Source of the DNA: a virus
Lineage: Duplodnaviria > Heunggongvirae > Uroviricota > Caudoviricetes
Virus record (IMG/VR): IMGVR_UViG_2671180753_000007
DNA length: 6,205 nt
Reading direction: 5' to 3' (one strand)
Under the pieces are notes generated by a model. It was not told where the DNA came from. It was given only the letters and a program-made list of their open reading frames with translations, and ran no database searches. Positions 1 to 6,205 of the stretch are shown here, one piece after another; the first letter of the stretch is position 1; every line of letters starts with the position of its first letter. The position numbers and the translations under genes were made by a program.

Positions 1-36
1 CAGCACGTTTAACGTCCTGTGCCGTTTTTCAGGTAT

Positions 37-58
37 AAAAAAACCCGCATAAAGCGGG
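37..58 (-). terminator. Rho-independent terminator downstream of the Q-like gene
   Basis: Plus strand has a 7-A run (37-43) followed by CCCGC-ATAAA-GCGGG (44-58). On the minus strand this is a GC stem-loop followed by UUUUUUU, about 78 nt past the Q-like stop codon. Confidence 0.6.
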
Positions 59-137
59 CTCTTTCAAATGTCCATGTCTGCTATTCGCCTCGCGGTACAG
101 CTTTGCGAAGCGTACAAGAATTGAAGCAGTTTTTACG

Positions 138-692
138 TCAAAAAGCAATAACTTTTTTCTCTATACCAAAAGCCATAACCATTGGTTTGTACAAAATAAA
201 TTCTGCCACCTTTAGCCAATGCTCAATGCGTCTTTCACAGGTTCTTAAACTCCATTTCGGGTGTGCATCATTCAGCAGTTCAGCCATTTTGCGTTTGGTC
301 ATCCCCCGCCCCTCATACCGTTGCCGAAGGACGCTAATCAATCCTGGATGCTCTGCCAGCACCTCACTTATGACCCGATCAATACATAACGCCTCTGCAT
401 CAGTACAATGCGCCAGCCAGCTCTTTTGCTTACCGTTAATCATATCCCGCAAAAAAGCCTCAAGTTCAGACTTGTTCAGACCTGCTTTTTTCATCCTCCG
501 GAGCGCCTCGTTAATTGCCGTTTTTGTCAGCTTTTTAGAGGTCAACATCAGGTTAAACATATTCCCCGTCTTACCGCCACCAATATACGACCAGCGCCCC
601 CACATACGTAGTTTTCCCTGAATCCAGACACTTTCCAGCGTGGTGAGACGAAGGTGTTCTCCGCTTTTTCCTGTATTCGTTGGGTAAATCAT
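138..692 (-). CDS. Putative Q-like late antiterminator (184 aa); function assigned by synteny
   Basis: The ORF track gives 138..812, but the internal ATG at 692..690 has a strong SD (AAGGAGG about 6 nt upstream) and forms an ATGA stop/start overlap with the upstream DUF1364 gene. It is the last gene of the DUF1367-DUF1364-X module, where lambdoid/Qin-like prophages carry Q, and a strong terminator follows. No diagnostic motif was recognised, so the family is inferred. Confidence 0.5.
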   Translation of the reverse strand: MIYPTNTGKSGEHLRLTTLESVWIQGKLRMWGRWSYIGGGKTGNMFNLMLTSKKLTKTAINEALRRMKKAGLNKSELEAFLRDMINGKQKSWLAHCTDAEALCIDRVISEVLAEHPGLISVLRQRYEGRGMTKRKMAELLNDAHPKWSLRTCERRIEHWLKVAEFILYKPMVMAFGIEKKVIAF

Positions 693-979
693 AAATATCC
701 CTCCTTTCTCCAGATTTCTTGTGTGCGAAAAACACCTTCTGCATGCATCAGGCGTAATTCTTCTTTGGTGTAATCGCTGGTTTTTACCCGCCCGTCGATT
801 AAATCGTGGCACGAGCTACAGGCAATCGCTGCCTGCATATCGTGTGGCTTTATCGCTGTTCCGCACGTTCCCGCCAGTCGGTAATGCGCCAGCACAGACG
901 TTTCCGGATCGTGATTGCAGTAGCCAGGAATTCTGACGGTGCACATCTGCCCCCGCGCCGCTTTACGTAAATCCACCAT
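689..979 (-). CDS. DUF1364 / YbcO-like zinc-binding prophage protein (96 aa)
   Basis: 96-aa ORF with spaced Cys/His residues (CTVRIPGYCNHDPETSVLAH ... IACSSCHDLIDGR) and the same length as YbcO-family proteins of the lambdoid nin region. Its start overlaps the DUF1367 stop (TAATG) and its stop overlaps the Q-like start. Confidence 0.7.
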   Translation of the reverse strand: MVDLRKAARGQMCTVRIPGYCNHDPETSVLAHYRLAGTCGTAIKPHDMQAAIACSSCHDLIDGRVKTSDYTKEELRLMHAEGVFRTQEIWRKEGYL

Positions 980-1578
980 TACGCAAACTCCAGCAGCTGC
1001 GCGGCCACATTTTCGACTTGTTCCGGAGAGGAAAATTTACGGAACAGAATCCAGTTCCACAGCACATTCAGAACAGATTTATAAACCTGCTGAAACTCGG
1101 TTTCGTCCATATTCGCAAAAGCGATGGATTTTGCCCGACGCCCGCGGCTACCGTCCGGATAAAAATGTTCGGTGTAAAATCCAGCCTGAATGGTTACCCA
1201 CTCGCGAAAAGCCTCAAACGACTTTAGCAATGCCGTATCCCGGGTTCTGCGTGTCGCAACTGTATTCAGATATTGCTCTGCGGCTTCGCTCAGAGCTGGC
1301 GTATGTTCCCGACCTACTGATTCGCACAGGTAATCAACGAAACCAGACAGCAGTTCTCGTTCGCGAGGCGTGATCGCCCCACCGACCGGAGTCCAGTAAT
1401 CGAATCCCAGTTGCAGGAGTTTGAAAAAACGCTTGTGGAATGCGTAGTTACGCACACGCTTAAAGTCTGCGTGTATCCACTCACCTGTTTTGATTTGATG
1501 CAGAAAATCGCAACTCTCCGGCGTCGCCGGGAGAAGTAATCCGGAAGAGGTTTGTTTGATCAGTTGTATATGCGCCAT
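979..1578 (-). CDS. DUF1367-family lambdoid prophage protein (199 aa), intact copy
   Basis: 199-aa ORF starting MAHIQLIKQTSSGLLLPATPESCDFLHQIK, with SD GGAG 7 nt upstream of the ATG at 1578..1576. Its 5' 307 bp recurs as truncated paralogs at 2852..3158 and 4284..4437. Confidence 0.7.
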   Translation of the reverse strand: MAHIQLIKQTSSGLLLPATPESCDFLHQIKTGEWIHADFKRVRNYAFHKRFFKLLQLGFDYWTPVGGAITPRERELLSGFVDYLCESVGREHTPALSEAAEQYLNTVATRRTRDTALLKSFEAFREWVTIQAGFYTEHFYPDGSRGRRAKSIAFANMDETEFQQVYKSVLNVLWNWILFRKFSSPEQVENVAAQLLEFA

Positions 1579-2093
1579 CGTAGTTCTCCGCTGGCGCAGT
1601 AGAATGGGTGTTCAGCCCGTTATGTAGTATACCAGAATTAATGCCAATACTAACAGGATGCTCTGACTCGCAATTCATCCAGCAGTTTATCATTTCCCAT
1701 AATGTCACTTACCCTCATCGGTAAAAAAATTGCCTTTCGACCATTACGATACATCATTGATTTTTTGGTTTCAGGGAAGTAATCCATTTCGACTATAACT
1801 GACAGGTCATCACGACGTATGACTGCGTATTTACTACTAAATAGTTTCTTTATTTTTTCCACGATGCCTCCAGGTTTATAAGTACAAACGGTTATATCAA
1901 CATAGAGACAAAAGGTGATGCTGCCAACTTACTGATTTAGTGTATGATCGTGTTTTTGAGGTGCTCCAGTGGCTTCTGTTTCTATCAGCTGTCCCTCCTG
2001 TTCAGCTACTGACGGGGTGGTGCGTAACGGCAAAAGCACTGCCGGACATCAGCGCTATCTCTGCTCTCACTGCCGTAAAACATGGCAACTGCA
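1272..2093. repeat. 822-bp direct repeat, copy 1 (DUF1367 5' part, Rem-like ORF, upstream region, IS1 nt 1-180)
   Basis: Colinear with 2852..3673 at a constant offset of 1580 bp. There are 8 mismatches, all within 1312..1497, and none from 1498 to 2093. Confidence 0.95.
1650..1862 (-). CDS. Small hypothetical prophage protein (70 aa), possibly Rem-like
   Basis: GTG start at 1862..1860 preceded by GGAGG. It sits immediately upstream of DUF1367, as rem sits next to ydfU in Qin. Its N-terminus weakly resembles the 95-aa ORF at 4476..4763. Confidence 0.45.
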   Translation of the reverse strand: MEKIKKLFSSKYAVIRRDDLSVIVEMDYFPETKKSMMYRNGRKAIFLPMRVSDIMGNDKLLDELRVRASC

Positions 2094-2147
2094 CGCATTA
2101 TGGGCGTTGGCCTCAACACGATTTTACGTCACTTAAAAAACTCAGGC
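1914..2147 (+). mobile_element. IS1 left-end fragment (IS1 nt 1-319 with an 85-bp internal deletion)
   Basis: Starts with the IS1 inverted repeat GGTGATGCTGCCAACTTACTGAT and matches the complete IS1 at 3494... It lacks the 85 bp lying between two 10-bp direct repeats GGCAACTGCA (3664-3673 and 3749-3758 in the full copy). Homology ends at 2147. Confidence 0.9.
1969..2136 (+). pseudogene. insA: insA pseudogene (frameshifted by the 85-bp deletion)
   Basis: Reads [41 protein letters not shown], identical to the intact InsA at 3549, then shifts frame at the deletion junction and stops at 2134-2136. Confidence 0.8.
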
Positions 2148-2851
2148 TACCTCAGAGAATGGCATCATCGTTGGTCGTGACCGACTGGCACGTCTTCGTA
2201 AGGAGCTAAGGCTACGCTGTAAGCAGAAACGCAAGTTCAGAGCGACTACGAACTCGAACCACAATCTGCCAGTTGCGCCAAATCTGCTGAACCAGACGTT
2301 CGCTCCTACAGCACCAAATCAGGTCTGGGTGGCGGACCTGACGTATGTTGCCACACAGGAGGGATGGTTGTACCTCGCTGGCATCAAAGATGTTTATACG
2401 TGCGAAATTGTCGGCTACGCCATGGGAGAGCGCATGACAAAAGAGCTGACAGGTAAAGCCCTGTTTATGGCGCTCAGGAGCCAGCGCCCACCTGCCGGGC
2501 TAATCCACCACTCTGATCGAGGTTCACAGTACTGCGCATACGATTACCGGGTCATACAGGAGCAGTCTGGTCTGAAAACATCAATGTCGCGTAAAGGTAA
2601 CTGTTACGACAACGCTCCGATGGAAAGCTTCTGGGGAACGCTGAAAAATGAGAGCCTGAGCCACTATCGTTTTAATAACCGGGATGAAGCCATCTCAGTA
2701 ATACGGGAATACATTGAGATTTTCTACAATCGTCAGCGTCGTCACTCTCGTCTGGGGAATATCTCCCCGGCAGCCTTCAGGGAAAAATATCATCAGATGG
2801 CTGCTTAAAAAAAGAACAAATGGTAGTGTCCGCTATTGCCAGTACACCTCA
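2148..2851 (+). mobile_element. 3' fragment of an IS3-family element (IS3 group, possibly IS600-like)
   Basis: Contains only the C-terminal part of an OrfB transposase and ends in a terminal repeat ...CGCTATTGCCAGTACACCTCA (TG...CA type). It abuts the truncated IS1 on the left and the DUF1367 fragment on the right. Confidence 0.8.
2149..2808 (+). pseudogene. IS3-family transposase OrfB, C-terminal DDE-domain fragment
   Basis: A continuous frame from 2149 encodes ...PNQVWVADLTYVATQEGWLYLAG...HSDRGSQY...SMSRKGNCYDNAPMESFWGTLK...YNRQRRHSRLGNISP, with the D, D, E core motifs of IS3-family OrfB. There is no OrfA or OrfB N-terminus. Confidence 0.85.
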
Positions 2852-3158
2852 ATTGCTCTGCGGCTTCGCTCAGAGCTGGCGTATGTTCCCGGCCTACTGA
2901 TTCACACAGGTAATCAACGAAACCGGACACCAGTTTTCGTTCGCGAGGCGTGATCGCCCCACCGACCGGAGTCCAGTAATCGAAACCCAGTTGCAGGAGT
3001 TTGAAAAAACGCTTGTGGAATGCGTAGTTACACACACGCTTAAAGTCTGCGTGTATCCACTCACCTATTTTGATTTGATGCAGAAAATCGCAACTCTCCG
3101 GCGTCGCCGGGAGAAGTAATCCGGAAGAGGTTTGTTTGATCAGTTGTATATGCGCCAT
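2805..3158 (-). pseudogene. DUF1367 gene 5' fragment (copy B), truncated by the IS3-family element
   Basis: The first 102 codons match the 979..1578 protein (MAHIQLIKQT...EAAEQ). The frame then runs into IS sequence after 2852 and stops. Confidence 0.85.
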
Positions 3159-3673
3159 CGTAGTTCTCCGCTGGCGCAGTAGAATGGGTGTTCAGCCCGT
3201 TATGTAGTATACCAGAATTAATGCCAATACTAACAGGATGCTCTGACTCGCAATTCATCCAGCAGTTTATCATTTCCCATAATGTCACTTACCCTCATCG
3301 GTAAAAAAATTGCCTTTCGACCATTACGATACATCATTGATTTTTTGGTTTCAGGGAAGTAATCCATTTCGACTATAACTGACAGGTCATCACGACGTAT
3401 GACTGCGTATTTACTACTAAATAGTTTCTTTATTTTTTCCACGATGCCTCCAGGTTTATAAGTACAAACGGTTATATCAACATAGAGACAAAAGGTGATG
3501 CTGCCAACTTACTGATTTAGTGTATGATCGTGTTTTTGAGGTGCTCCAGTGGCTTCTGTTTCTATCAGCTGTCCCTCCTGTTCAGCTACTGACGGGGTGG
3601 TGCGTAACGGCAAAAGCACTGCCGGACATCAGCGCTATCTCTGCTCTCACTGCCGTAAAACATGGCAACTGCA
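2852..3673. repeat. 822-bp direct repeat, copy 2
   Basis: Matches 1272..2093 (see copy 1). Confidence 0.95.
3230..3442 (-). CDS. Small hypothetical prophage protein (70 aa), second copy, possibly Rem-like
   Basis: Identical at nucleotide level to 1650..1862 and lies within repeat copy 2. Confidence 0.45.
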   Translation of the reverse strand: MEKIKKLFSSKYAVIRRDDLSVIVEMDYFPETKKSMMYRNGRKAIFLPMRVSDIMGNDKLLDELRVRASC

Positions 3674-3824
3674 GTTCACTTACACCGCTTCTCAACCCGG
3701 TACGCACCAGAAAATCATTGATATGGCCATGAATGGCGTTGGATGCCGGGCAACTGCACGCATTATGGGCGTTGGCCTCAACACGATTTTACGTCACTTA
3801 AAAAACTCAGGCCGCAGTCGGTAA
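3549..3824 (+). CDS. insA: IS1 InsA (91 aa)
   Basis: [18 protein letters not shown]...[11 protein letters not shown] matches canonical IS1 InsA as recalled. Confidence 0.95.
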
Positions 3825-4246
3825 CCTCGCGCATACAGCCGGGCAGTGACGTCATCGTCTGCGCGGAAATGGACGAACAGTGGGGCTATGTCGGGGCTAA
3901 ATCGCGCCAGCGCTGGCTGTTTTACGCGTATGACAGTCTCCGGAAGACGGTTGTTGCGCACGTATTCGGTGAACGCACTATGGCGACGCTGGGGCGTCTT
4001 ATGAGCCTGCTGTCACCCTTTGACGTGGTGATATGGATGACGGATGGCTGGCCGCTGTATGAATCCCGCCTGAAGGGAAAGCTGCACGTAATCAGCAAGC
4101 GATATACGCAGCGAATTGAGCGGCATAACCTGAATCTGAGGCAGCACCTGGCACGGCTGGGACGGAAGTCGCTGTCGTTCTCAAAATCGGTGGAGCTGCA
4201 TGACAAAGTCATCGGGCATTATCTGAACATAAAACACTATCAATAA
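3743..4246 (+). CDS. insB: IS1 InsB reading frame (expressed as the InsAB' transposase by -1 frameshift)
   Basis: 167-aa [19 protein letters not shown]...HYLNIKHYQ overlapping insA in the -1 frame. The AAAAAAC slippery site lies at 3800-3806. Confidence 0.9.
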
Positions 4247-4260
4247 GTTGGAGTCATTAC

Positions 4261-4437
4261 CTACCTAATGAAATAGACTATCAAAAAACGCTTGTGGAAT
4301 GCGTAGTTACACACACGCTTAAAGTCTGCGTGTATCCACTCACCTATTTTGATTTGATGCAGAAAATCGCAACTCTCCGGCGTCGCCGGGAGAAGTAATC
4401 CGGAAGAGGTTTGTTTGACCAGTTGTATATGTGCCAT
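4261..4437 (-). pseudogene. DUF1367 gene 5' fragment (copy C), truncated next to the IS1 right end
   Basis: ATG at 4437..4435 with SD GGAG. The first 51 codons (MAHIQLVKQTSSGLLLPATPESCDFLHQIKIGEWIHADFKRVCNYAFHKRF) match copies A/B, then the frame reads 7 unrelated codons and stops at the IS1 boundary. Nucleotide homology to copy B covers 4284..4437. Confidence 0.8.
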
Positions 4438-4475
4438 CGGCTTTCTCCGGTGGCACGGTGTTACACAGCAGGAGT

Positions 4476-4763
4476 TCAATCCTGCTCAAGATTGTAGATG
4501 AGTTTATTCTTCAGCAAAAGCAGAAAACCAGCCTTAAAACCAATCTCTTTCAAAACCCGTAATGATGTGACAAATTCGTCCTCACGCAAAATAAAACCGT
4601 CCGTCAGAAGTCCATTACAAAAATAAAATAACACAGCACCGCTCTTCCTTTGTTGAGATTGCAAACATCTAATGCGGCAATGGCTGACAATCGCTCCATT
4701 CTCAACGCGCACAGCATAGAGGCCATTTTCACTAAAAATTTCACGCAATTCTTCGATTTTCAT
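4476..4763 (-). CDS. Small hypothetical prophage protein (95 aa), divergent Rem-like
   Basis: ATG at 4763..4761 with SD GGAAGGA about 8 nt upstream. It lies between hok and the DUF1367 fragment, the position rem occupies in Qin. Weak N-terminal similarity to the 70-aa ORFs (..LREIFSENGLYAVRVENGAIV vs ..KKLFSSKYAVIRRDDLSVIV). Confidence 0.5.
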   Translation of the reverse strand: MKIEELREIFSENGLYAVRVENGAIVSHCRIRCLQSQQRKSGAVLFYFCNGLLTDGFILREDEFVTSLRVLKEIGFKAGFLLLLKNKLIYNLEQD

Positions 4764-4844
4764 CTTCAGAATCCTTCCAGATAAATAGCTCTCCCCTGTT
4801 CGGGGTCCATCCCTCTTCTCCCTGCGCGCTACTTAAGTGAGTCG

Positions 4845-4872
4845 ATTCTATCTGCGAAGGTGCGCGAATCAA
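4845..4872 (-). promoter_or_regulatory. Candidate sigma70 promoter for the Rem-like/DUF1367 transcript
   Basis: On the minus strand: -35 TTGATT (4872..4867), 16-bp spacer, -10 TAGAAT (4850..4845), about 80 nt upstream of the 95-aa ORF start. Confidence 0.25.
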
Positions 4873-4892
4873 ATTCACCGGAAATAAACAAC

Positions 4893-4935
4893 AAAAAACC
4901 CGCCGAAACGCTGAGAGATCACAGCGATGGGCGGG
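4893..4935 (-). terminator. hok mRNA 3' terminator
   Basis: On the minus strand: CCCGCC-CAT-CGCTG-loop-CAGCG-TTTC-GGCGGG followed by UUUUUU, about 80 nt downstream of the hok stop. Confidence 0.55.
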
Positions 4936-4941
4936 TTAAGT

Positions 4942-4956
4942 GCGGGTGCGTTGAGG
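4942..4956 (-). promoter_or_regulatory. hok mRNA fbi (fold-back inhibition) element, complementary to the 5' tac element at 5327..5340
   Basis: Plus-strand GCGGGTGCGTTGAGG (4942-4956) is the inverted complement of CCTCAAGCACCCGC (5327-5340) with one extra base. In the minus-strand transcript the 3' end can therefore pair with the 5' end, as in hok-family mRNAs. Confidence 0.45.
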
Positions 4957-5012
4957 ATGCCTGACACATCAGAGGTGGGCGGGGATGGGATCAGCTCCCC
5001 GCCCGGTCACTC

Positions 5013-5168
5013 TTACTTCCTGGATTCGTAGTCTACGAAGACAGCGACCTCCGTCTGGCCGGTTCGGATTCGTACCTCACAGAGGTCTTTCCTCGTTACC
5101 AGTGCCGTCACTATGACGGTTAAACAGATGACGATCAGGGCGATTAACATCGCCTTTTGCTGCTTCAT
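5013..5168 (-). CDS. hok: Hok/Gef-family type I toxin (51 aa), hokD/hokC-like
   Basis: MKQQKAMLIALIVICLTVIVTALVTRKDLCEVRIRTGQTEVAVFVDYESRK: a single transmembrane helix and the conserved RKDLCEV.IRTGQ.EVA motif of Hok/Gef proteins. SD AGGAG lies 9 nt upstream of the ATG. Confidence 0.85.
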   Translation of the reverse strand: MKQQKAMLIALIVICLTVIVTALVTRKDLCEVRIRTGQTEVAVFVDYESRK

Positions 5169-5225
5169 AGCCTGCTTCTCCTTGCCTTTCGGCATGTAAG
5201 AGGCTAACCTACATGTGCAAAGCAT
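5013..5225 (-). CDS. mok: mok-like in-frame upstream reading frame overlapping hok (70 aa)
   Basis: ATG at 5225..5223 gives MLCTCRLASYMPKGKEKQA fused in frame to Hok, resembling the in-frame MokC arrangement of chromosomal hokC as recalled. Confidence 0.45.
   Translation of the reverse strand: MLCTCRLASYMPKGKEKQAMKQQKAMLIALIVICLTVIVTALVTRKDLCEVRIRTGQTEVAVFVDYESRK
5182..5210 (+). promoter_or_regulatory. Candidate sok antisense promoter
   Basis: Plus-strand -35 TTGCCT (5182-5187), 17-bp spacer, -10 TAACCT (5205-5210), antisense to the mok/hok translation initiation region. The position and hexamers parallel the plasmid R1 sok promoter as recalled from memory. Confidence 0.4.
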
Positions 5226-5290
5226 GAAATTGGCCTCAGATTAATGTTAAGCGTCTTGCCGGACGCGTAATGTTAACTGGGGCTTTTCTC
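5217..5290 (+). ncRNA. sok: Candidate Sok antisense RNA (3' end uncertain)
   Basis: Would start about 7 nt after the -10 at 5205-5210 and run antisense to the mok start and hok leader. No clean terminator hairpin with a U-tract was found, so the 3' end is approximate. Confidence 0.3.
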
Positions 5291-5344
5291 TATCTGCCTT
5301 TTGGTGTTCATGCCTGAAGCAGATAGCCTCAAGCACCCGCAGTC

Positions 5345-5374
5345 ATTCTACTTACCTCGCCAATATGAAATCAA
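5345..5374 (-). promoter_or_regulatory. Candidate hok mRNA promoter
   Basis: On the minus strand: -35 TTGATT (5374..5369), 18-bp spacer, -10 TAGAAT (5350..5345). The predicted transcript start GCGGGUGCUUGAGGCUAUCUGC resembles the 5' end of plasmid R1 hok mRNA and carries the conserved 5' stem (plus-strand inverted repeat CTATCTGC/GCAGATAG at 5291-5327). Confidence 0.45.
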
Positions 5375-5395
5375 TCAGAAAGGTGCCCCATAAAA

Positions 5396-6082
5396 TCACT
5401 CCTTCTCTTCTTTACCGTAGTGGAGTTGACCAATTTTGATAAGAGGGCGTCCCTGAGATTTGCGGTGTAGATTGGTATCGCGCAGAGAATACACACAGCC
5501 ACAATATTCCTGCTGATAGAATTTTTCGCGCTTGCTGATTTCAATCATACGGGACGAGCCGCCCTGCTTGCGCCAGTTATAATCCCAGTACACCATGCCC
5601 GGATAATGCGCGACGGCTCGCCGCCCACAGTCGTTAACCTGCTGCATATTTTTCCAGCGTGAAATGCCCAGTGAACTGCTGATCACACTGAAACCATTTT
5701 CAGCGGCGTACAGCGCTGTCCGCTCAAAACGCATGTCAAAACACATGGTGCAACGGATCCCTCGTTCGGGCTCCCATTCCATTCCTTTGGCTCGTTCAAA
5801 CCAGTTGTCTGTGTCGTAATCAGCATCAATAAACGGCACGCCGTGTTGTTCAGCAAAGCGAATATTCTCATCCTTACGAATTAAATACTCTTTCTGAGGA
5901 TGAATGTTCGGGTTGTAGAAAAAGATGGTGTAGTCGATTCCCGAGGCCTGAAGCGCCTCCATCACCTCACCGGAACATGGAGCACAGCAAGAGTGCAGTA
6001 GTAGTTTGTTTGCCCCGTTTGGGAGCTCCAATTTGGGCCGTTTGAAATCAGCAACTGTCATAAATATGTTTATTGGGGTCAT
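5396..6082 (-). CDS. queH: QueH/DUF208-like protein (putative epoxyqueuosine reductase family), 228 aa
   Basis: Intact 228-aa ORF with Cys-rich motifs [20 protein letters not shown] and EYCGCVYSL, which fit the cluster-binding motifs I recall for QueH (DUF208). No obvious SD precedes either candidate start (M1 at 6082 or M8). Confidence 0.55.
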
Positions 6083-6205
6083 AAAAATATCAAAGAGTGT
6101 AGCATTAGAACGGGGCTATCGGAAACAGATGTGTGACTGCTCCCCGCCCTTTCGGGTGGTCTCCTGATGATTTGAGGGTGCAGAAATCCCTCCGGTTAAG
6201 GATTA

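Follow-up and report, generated by a model that had tools for sequence, protein, structure and literature searches.

Two kinds of small gene that lie just upstream of a NinB-like (DUF1367) gene in a lambdoid prophage are probably antirepressors of DicA-class immunity, in two versions that would each act on their own repressor type. Both kinds are homologous to proteins of this class, they occupy a corresponding genomic position, and the version found in this slot co-varies with the type of repressor encoded further upstream. Judged by its sequence, the 95-aa ORF at 4476–4763 is most likely a version of Rem and the partner of DicA/DicC-type immunity, the partner repressor being assigned from relatives. 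The 70-aa ORF, which is present twice (1650–1862 and 3230–3442), is most likely a previously unannotated member of the GfoA family and the partner of a second DicA-class repressor type, designated A1 here.

In the mechanism that we propose, this group of lambdoid prophages would carry its antirepressor locus just upstream of the NinB-like gene, following the hok terminator in E. coli and dinI in Salmonella Gifsy-like phages. The partner would be a short DicA-class repressor that lacks a self-cleavage domain and is composed of an HTH and a helical C-terminal domain bearing the motif LLxLFxxLPxSEQ; such a repressor would be beyond inactivation by RecA-stimulated cleavage. The small protein (57–95 aa) would bind the repressor, strip it from its operators and start lytic gene expression. 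Derepression and complex formation are on record for Rem and GfoA, and we infer by analogy the same action for the alleles described here.

Layout of the window and position of the slot genes

The window, by which we mean the whole stretch of 6,205 nucleotides that was analyzed, is the nin region of a lambdoid prophage interrupted by insertion sequences, and all of its phage genes lie on the minus strand. Its features are the following:

138–701, minus strand: Q-like antiterminator
689–979, minus strand: YbcO/DUF1364
979–1578, minus strand: intact DUF1367 gene
1650–1862, minus strand: 70-aa ORF, copy 1, GTG start
1914–2147, plus strand: IS1 fragment, internally deleted and then cut by the IS3-family element
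2153–2855: IS3-family element, which cuts the IS1 fragment
2805–3158, minus strand: DUF1367 fragment of 117 aa, cut by the IS3-family element
3230–3442, minus strand: 70-aa ORF, copy 2, GTG start, identical to copy 1
3494–4261, plus strand: complete IS1 of 768 bp, with NCBIfam IS1 transposase matches
4261–4437, minus strand: N-terminal DUF1367 (NinB-like) fragment of 58 aa, right neighbor of the rem-like gene (Pfam DUF1367, 3.6e-19, positions 1–51 of 198)
4476–4763, minus strand: 95-aa Rem-family ORF, ATG start
4845–4872, minus strand: promoter-like site TTGATT-16-TAGAAT from a consensus scan, candidate promoter of the rem-like gene
4892–4937, minus strand: stem-loop and T-run closing the hok transcript (AACCCGC...GCGGGTTTTTT), read from the sequence
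5013–5168, minus strand: hok toxin gene, left neighbor of the slot (Pfam HOK_GEF, 4e-23)
5163–5338: sok match (Rfam RF01794, 117 bits)
5396–6082, minus strand: QueH

A sequence-only reading of this DNA had described a 95-aa ORF and a duplicated 70-aa ORF, with good ribosome-binding sites and immediately upstream of DUF1367 starts. All three are present as described, the two 70-aa copies being identical, and they end 38–71 nt upstream of the DUF1367 starts (4437, 1578 and 3158). Plausible ribosome-binding sites precede them: GGAAGGA 8 nt before the ATG of the 95-aa ORF, and GGAGG 5 nt before the GTG of the 70-aa ORF. The same reading had placed these genes in a conserved slot between hok and DUF1367. 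Across relatives, such a conserved slot does exist, bounded upstream by hok and downstream by the NinB-like gene, and it is filled with very divergent small genes. Within the window, the description fits the 95-aa ORF but not the two 70-aa copies, which have IS1 rather than hok upstream; in intact relatives of the latter, such as locus L002, hok does precede the 70-aa gene.

The window is a mosaic. Positions 1–4261 and 4283–6205 match different sets of public phage contigs at 99–100% identity, which indicates that two prophage backgrounds meet at the complete IS1. One end of this element abuts the second 70-aa copy, and the other interrupts the DUF1367 gene downstream of the rem-like gene. The three DUF1367 5' ends in the window result from this join, and two of the three DUF1367 genes are truncated by insertion sequences (58 aa at 4261–4437 and 117 aa at 2805–3158). 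IS1 abuts both 70-aa copies at an identical point (1863–1914 and 3443–3494), 51 nt upstream of the GTG, from which it follows that the IS1 insertion preceded the duplication. Compared with the complete copy, the IS1 fragment at 1914 lacks about 90 bp internally, and the C-terminal part of the transposase is all that remains of the IS3-family element in 1914–2855. At the other end of the window, the QueH (epoxyqueuosine reductase) gene adjoins hok. The corresponding region of Salmonella phage SPN3UB contains a gene for a queuine tRNA-ribosyltransferase (L242, 142–897), and queuosine-related genes recur there. The counterpart of the hok stem-loop in L002 is a called terminator, and the loop of the hok terminator in the window (4892–4937) carries an insertion of about 33 nt relative to most relatives (AACCCGC-TTCG-GCGGG).

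Relationship of the slot genes to Rem and GfoA

Over residues 1–80, the 95-aa ORF is 68% identical to Rem of K-12 (E 2e-34), and it matches phrog_340 (6e-20). It has 77 database relatives, all with a precomputed PF27490 assignment, and the dN/dS of the family is 0.27 (34 alleles); neither slot ORF had a Pfam match in the library searched. Relatives from phage records are annotated rem, with one annotated "prophage antirepressor", and both slot families are annotated as CDS in RefSeq relatives. The Rem family is narrow, with 56 relatives in total in an exhaustive profile search of 1.84 billion representatives. Like Rem of the Qin prophage, which lies downstream of hokD, the 95-aa ORF is located downstream of hok in the lambdoid nin region, outside the immunity region, and its relatives likewise carry a DicA-like repressor and a DicC-like Cro. 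In L001, the closest intact relative, a gene 4.6 kb upstream codes for a repressor of 135 aa that shares 62% identity with DicA. The gene order here is QueH, hok, 95-aa ORF, DUF1367, as opposed to hokD, rem, ydfU in K-12, where ydfU encodes DUF968; the DUF1367 gene following the 95-aa ORF is cut by IS1. The suggestion that the ORF matches rem in position is thus borne out on the hok side, with the sequence identity going beyond mere position, but not on the other side, where K-12 rem precedes DUF968.

The description of rem as uncharacterized, also part of the sequence-only reading, proved outdated. Rem is an antirepressor of DicA that relieves repression of dicBp 165-fold (Ragunathan et al. 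2023, PMC10448788). It causes filamentation via DicB and DicF, and the toxicity of ectopically produced Rem arises because dicBF is derepressed (PMC10448788). Iterated searching, with the Gifsy antirepressors GfoA and FsoA as starting points, had led to the protein, and its inducing signal was stated to be unknown (PMC10448788).

The 95-aa ORF differs from the usual Rem-family members of 83–86 aa because a 1-nt deletion has replaced its acidic tail. Through residue 80 the protein is identical to one of 86 aa (P0003), and alignment of the window DNA with the loci L027/L028, which are otherwise identical through the 3' end, showed that one T is missing: a T4 run at 4524–4527 (minus strand) stands in place of the T5 run of the 86-aa allele. 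The ancestral TAA (4504–4506) is read through, and the stop is a TGA 27 nt further on (4476–4478). The frameshift after F80 swaps the acidic tail SAFAEE for LLLLKNKLIYNLEQD while the core (residues 1–80) stays intact; the usual C-terminal tail of the Rem family (GFSAF plus acidic residues) is thereby absent. Conservation across the superfamily ends with the G-F at 79–80, immediately before the shift, and tails beyond this G-F vary widely among functional relatives, for example GfoA and Rem. The 95-aa allele was found at 24 distinct IMG/VR loci and belongs to a cluster whose 82 sequences are spread over about 999 contigs, and the exact protein is named from Shigella sonnei and Shigella flexneri. 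In the K-12-like Rem genes P0044 and P0045, an independent 1-nt deletion in an A-run two codons upstream leads into the same alternative frame (...LAFLLFQKNKLIYNLARG), and one P0044/P0045 cluster has 102 members. Given these two independent deletions, frameshifted tails of the rem-like gene arose at least twice.

For the 70-aa ORF, listed before as a gene of unknown function, the searches revealed homology to the Gifsy antirepressor GfoA. The ORF matches phrog_1813 (1.6e-32) and has 19 database relatives, and the dN/dS of its family is 0.33 (29 alleles). A tblastn search of phage genomes identified a 32%-identical counterpart in Salmonella phage SPN3UB (gp59), and the sequences of GfoA and GftA were recovered from public viral contigs by means of the primers printed in Lemire et al. 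The 70-aa ORF aligns with gp59 over 66 aa (E 2e-13), gp59 aligns with GfoA over 77 aa (E 2e-15), and the 70-aa ORF aligns with GfoA directly over 39 aa (E 4e-5, about 33% identity). BLASTP of the 70-aa ORF against GftA gave no alignment, and an HMM that included GfoA recovered the whole 70-aa family. The gene starts with GTG and lies 71 nt before DUF1367, outside the immunity region, and the same order is found at the other two loci. At the GfoA locus it reads LexA box, dinI, gfoA, DUF1367 homologue (STM1020/STM2620-like), and in SPN3UB it reads terminator, LexA box (TACTGTGTTTATATACAGTA), dinI, gp59, DUF1367. Homology both via gp59 and directly, combined with the shared position, assigns the 70-aa ORF to the GfoA type by sequence as well as by location. 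As an aside, the record PP818812.1 (hit H31), labeled Actinobacillus phage vB_Apl-pPE4, contains a 70-aa gene 95.7% identical to that of E. coli/Shigella, a degree of identity that makes the stated host surprising.

Gifsy repressors are short and uncleaved, and small antirepressors bind them, most likely in an A2B2 complex (Lemire et al. 2011, PMC3121763). The same repressor class includes DicA and RacR, and gftA and gfoA have non-ATG starts (PMC3121763), with which the GTG of the 70-aa ORF agrees. The 70-aa ORF thus resembles GfoA and GfhA (Gifsy-1/-3) in size, in its non-ATG start and in its place immediately upstream of DUF1367. In both cases the unit begins after a terminator and the partner repressor, A1 for the 70-aa family, is short and lacks a cleavage domain. 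The two systems differ in that dinI lies upstream of gfoA and gfhA whereas hok does so in the 70-aa family, in that GfoA and GfhA are LexA-controlled whereas a LexA box was found only in two divergent relatives of the 70-aa ORF, and in that their partner repressors are of different DicA-class types. GftA (Gifsy-2) and FsoA (Fels-1) are of the same functional class and similar to GfoA according to Lemire et al. (PMC3121763); in our comparison, GfoA and GftA matched with an E of 6e-4 in a small sequence set. FsoA is controlled by the repressor of its own phage, in the left operon. Tum (phage 186), AntC (N15) and Ant (P22) also inactivate a phage repressor by binding, but they are larger proteins encoded at other genomic positions than the slot ORFs. 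Tum and AntC are SOS-controlled.

How the two slot families relate to each other is less readily seen. A weak N-terminal similarity had been reported, and alignment with Rem and structure prediction had been put forward as checks. BLASTP gave no direct alignment of the 95-aa with the 70-aa ORF, and hhalign of the Rem family against the 70-aa family returned a probability of 0.55%; adding GfoA and gp59 raised it to 8%, with an alignment that was collinear over the full length. Since this result is weak, the case for relatedness was built on intermediate proteins instead. P0137, which came from the exhaustive profile search, gives a full-length alignment with the 95-aa ORF (E 7e-11) and aligns with the N-terminal 37 residues of the 70-aa ORF (E 2e-7), and it consists of a 70-aa-type N-half joined to a Rem-type C-half. 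GfoA in turn matches the C-terminal part of the 95-aa ORF (E 0.003). Within a set of 147 sequences, it also matches (E ~1e-4) the 57-aa proteins that form a third slot family (P0067), and this third family has its first 23 residues/codons in common with Rem. We conclude from these comparisons that the 95-aa and 70-aa ORFs appear to be distant members of one superfamily with exchangeable halves. The reported N-terminal similarity therefore survives by way of P0137 and not as a direct match, and the alignment check came out clearly for the 95-aa ORF against Rem, with the link from the 95-aa to the 70-aa ORF running through intermediates only. Structure prediction contributed little: confidence in the two AlphaFold2 models was low to moderate (pLDDT 60.5 and 72.6), and a Foldseek search with both against the PDB and BFVD returned nothing with an E below 0.1. 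Both models show, at low confidence, the predicted order helix, four strands, helix. Similarities to Hfq (E ~0.1), to SocB and to the small alarmone synthetase YjbM (E 0.002, with 17.7 bits where the cut-off is 320) were dismissed as noise.

Co-variation of the slot with immunity type, and upstream control regions

To compare slot and immunity genes, 236 distinct loci with a Rem-type, 70-aa or 57-aa slot gene were collected with up to 10 kb on each side, and their ORFs were clustered. Pairing was assessed in the 124 loci with at least 9 kb upstream; the IMG/VR loci among them are phylogenetically non-independent. The Rem slot was accompanied by a DicA-like repressor and a DicC-like Cro in 35 of 40 loci, the 70-aa slot by repressor A1 (139 aa) and cro138 in 34 of 44, and the 57-aa slot by repressor B (153 aa) and cro99 in 32 of 40. 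A single clear mismatch between slot version and repressor/Cro type was found among the 124 loci. The adjusted mutual information (AMI) between slot type and gene presence was 0.43–0.53 for the immunity genes, located at -6.4 to -7.1 kb, as compared with 0–0.13 for the genes in between (-5.8 to -0.5 kb), 0.008 for hok immediately upstream and about 0.2 for downstream genes. Co-selected interacting partners would be predicted to show just such an association, one that passes over about 6 kb of freely assorting genes, and high divergence at a fixed position is the expectation for a specificity partner of a repressor. The loci comprise 87 distinct backbones, with each slot type occurring on 28–33 of them. 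Five backbones are common to different slot types, and the immunity type tracks the slot in all five.

The DicA-like, A1 and B repressors are all full-length matches to the NCBIfam model "repressor DicA" (A1: E 1.4e-15), and Pfam detected HTH domains only in the three types, with no peptidase or self-cleavage domain. Pairing at a finer level was not observed, as Rem alleles combine freely with four DicA subtypes that are 48–67% identical, and comparison of the N- and C-halves of the repressors gave no difference pointing to a contact domain. Two rarer DicA-class repressors, A2 and A3, were seen alongside each of the slot versions, and the usual Cro types did not accompany them; prophages with A2 or A3 may use another antirepressor, or cross-reacting ones. 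As far as our searches show, the literature apparently contains no description of three slot versions each paired with a repressor type of its own, and this pairing fits within the established model.

The candidate promoter of the rem-like gene is situated just downstream of the hok terminator. Its TAGAAT and the leader downstream of it are kept in Rem-type and 57-aa-type loci, where the leader is nearly identical. This leader (4764–4838) holds a short upstream ORF (MDPEQG...), which is fused in frame to the rem-like gene in some alleles (P0034, P0049). A LexA box was not found upstream of the rem-like gene, as is also the case for Rem of Qin, nor was one found at the 70-aa genes, either in the window or in mainstream alleles. 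Mainstream 70-aa genes have a distinct AT-rich upstream region of about 170 nt, from which IS1 severs both copies in the window, and a consensus scan of the intact 70-aa locus L002 gave no promoter site on the right strand. Perfect LexA boxes were present in L161 (~9781–9800, TACTGTATATCCATACAGT) and L163 (~9790–9809, TACTGTATATGCATACAGT), in both cases directly after the hok terminator and about 215 nt upstream of divergent 70-aa-family genes. Their location after the hok terminator links the E. coli arrangement to the Gifsy one. Two other modes of control were considered and rejected. For control of the slot by the phage's own repressor, no 11-mer was common to the repressor-cro intergenic and slot promoter regions of 131 loci, and for a structured regulatory RNA in the rem leader, folding gave a z-score of -1.7 and Rfam found sok only.

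Alternative readings and implications

The co-variation might simply reflect linkage inherited in a small number of phage lineages, in which case the 70-aa protein would have another nin-region role, for example with the NinB-like recombination protein. The 70-aa loci are indeed fairly uniform, mostly with the same replication genes and always with DUF1367 downstream, and the IMG/VR loci are not independent of one another. However, simple linkage does not readily account for an association that skips about 6 kb (AMI of 0–0.13 in between versus 0.43–0.53 at the immunity genes), or for identical backbones that carry different matched slot/immunity pairs. GfoA, a homologue at the same position, is moreover experimentally an antirepressor, and we consider the linkage explanation unlikely. 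It is very improbable that the slot genes are accessory "moron" genes (toxin, exclusion or anti-defence) unrelated to the lysis-lysogeny switch, an idea close to the variable accessory slot of the sequence-only reading. In its favor, the slot adjoins the hok/sok toxin-antitoxin locus, has its own promoter-like site and shows strong divergence at a fixed position, and ectopic Rem is toxic through filamentation. That toxicity is nevertheless accounted for by dicBF derepression, PADLOC gave no match at E <= 1 for either ORF or for Rem, and the 70-aa ORF is homologous to GfoA. The slot version also tracks the repressor/Cro type about 7 kb away, and such tight pairing over 87 backbones would be unexpected for a free accessory gene. 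Although the ORFs are short and had no Pfam match in the library searched, the notion that they are chance reading frames is hardly credible in view of their PHROG matches, their 77 and 19 relatives, dN/dS values of 0.27–0.33 and CDS annotation in RefSeq.

A further possibility qualifies the antirepressor reading rather than competing with it: the genes in the window could be inactive relics, in remnants that are no longer inducible via them. Pointing this way are the 1-nt deletion relative to the 86-aa allele, the IS1 located 51 nt upstream of both 70-aa copies, the truncation of two of the three DUF1367 genes in a region that is a patchwork of IS1 and IS3-family elements, and the naming of the exact 95-aa protein from Shigella sonnei, an IS-rich lineage. 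On the other side, the frameshift falls after the last superfamily-conserved residue, and tails differ among functional relatives. The 95-aa allele is also widespread (82-sequence cluster, ~999 contigs), and IS1 could supply outward transcription. We regard inactivity as quite possible while leaning somewhat against it. All three window copies may be crippled, the Rem-type gene by its frameshifted tail and both 70-aa genes by having been cut off by IS1; if all three are disabled, the prophage remnants would be locked in the repressed state. A bolder extension would make the slot a second, unlinked immunity-specificity locus of DicA-class lambdoid phages, with at least three allelic classes of exchangeable N- and C-halves, each kept with its own repressor class despite mosaicism, and with the three Shigella-like copies disabled independently (by frameshift, and by IS1 at a fixed point). 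In this full form the proposal is speculative, and we find it rather doubtful.

If the slot genes are antirepressors of DicA-class immunity, as we favor, they represent a known kind of system and not a new one. Two recurrent "hypothetical proteins" of E. coli and Shigella prophages would thereby become candidate induction switches, with a predicted repressor target for each slot version, and the relatives of the slot genes include Stx-phage-associated elements. Such assignments would help to predict prophage induction and cross-induction in polylysogens with toxin genes, and the three slot versions with their repressor types could provide a ready 3x3 set of antirepressor/repressor pairs for the study of recognition specificity.
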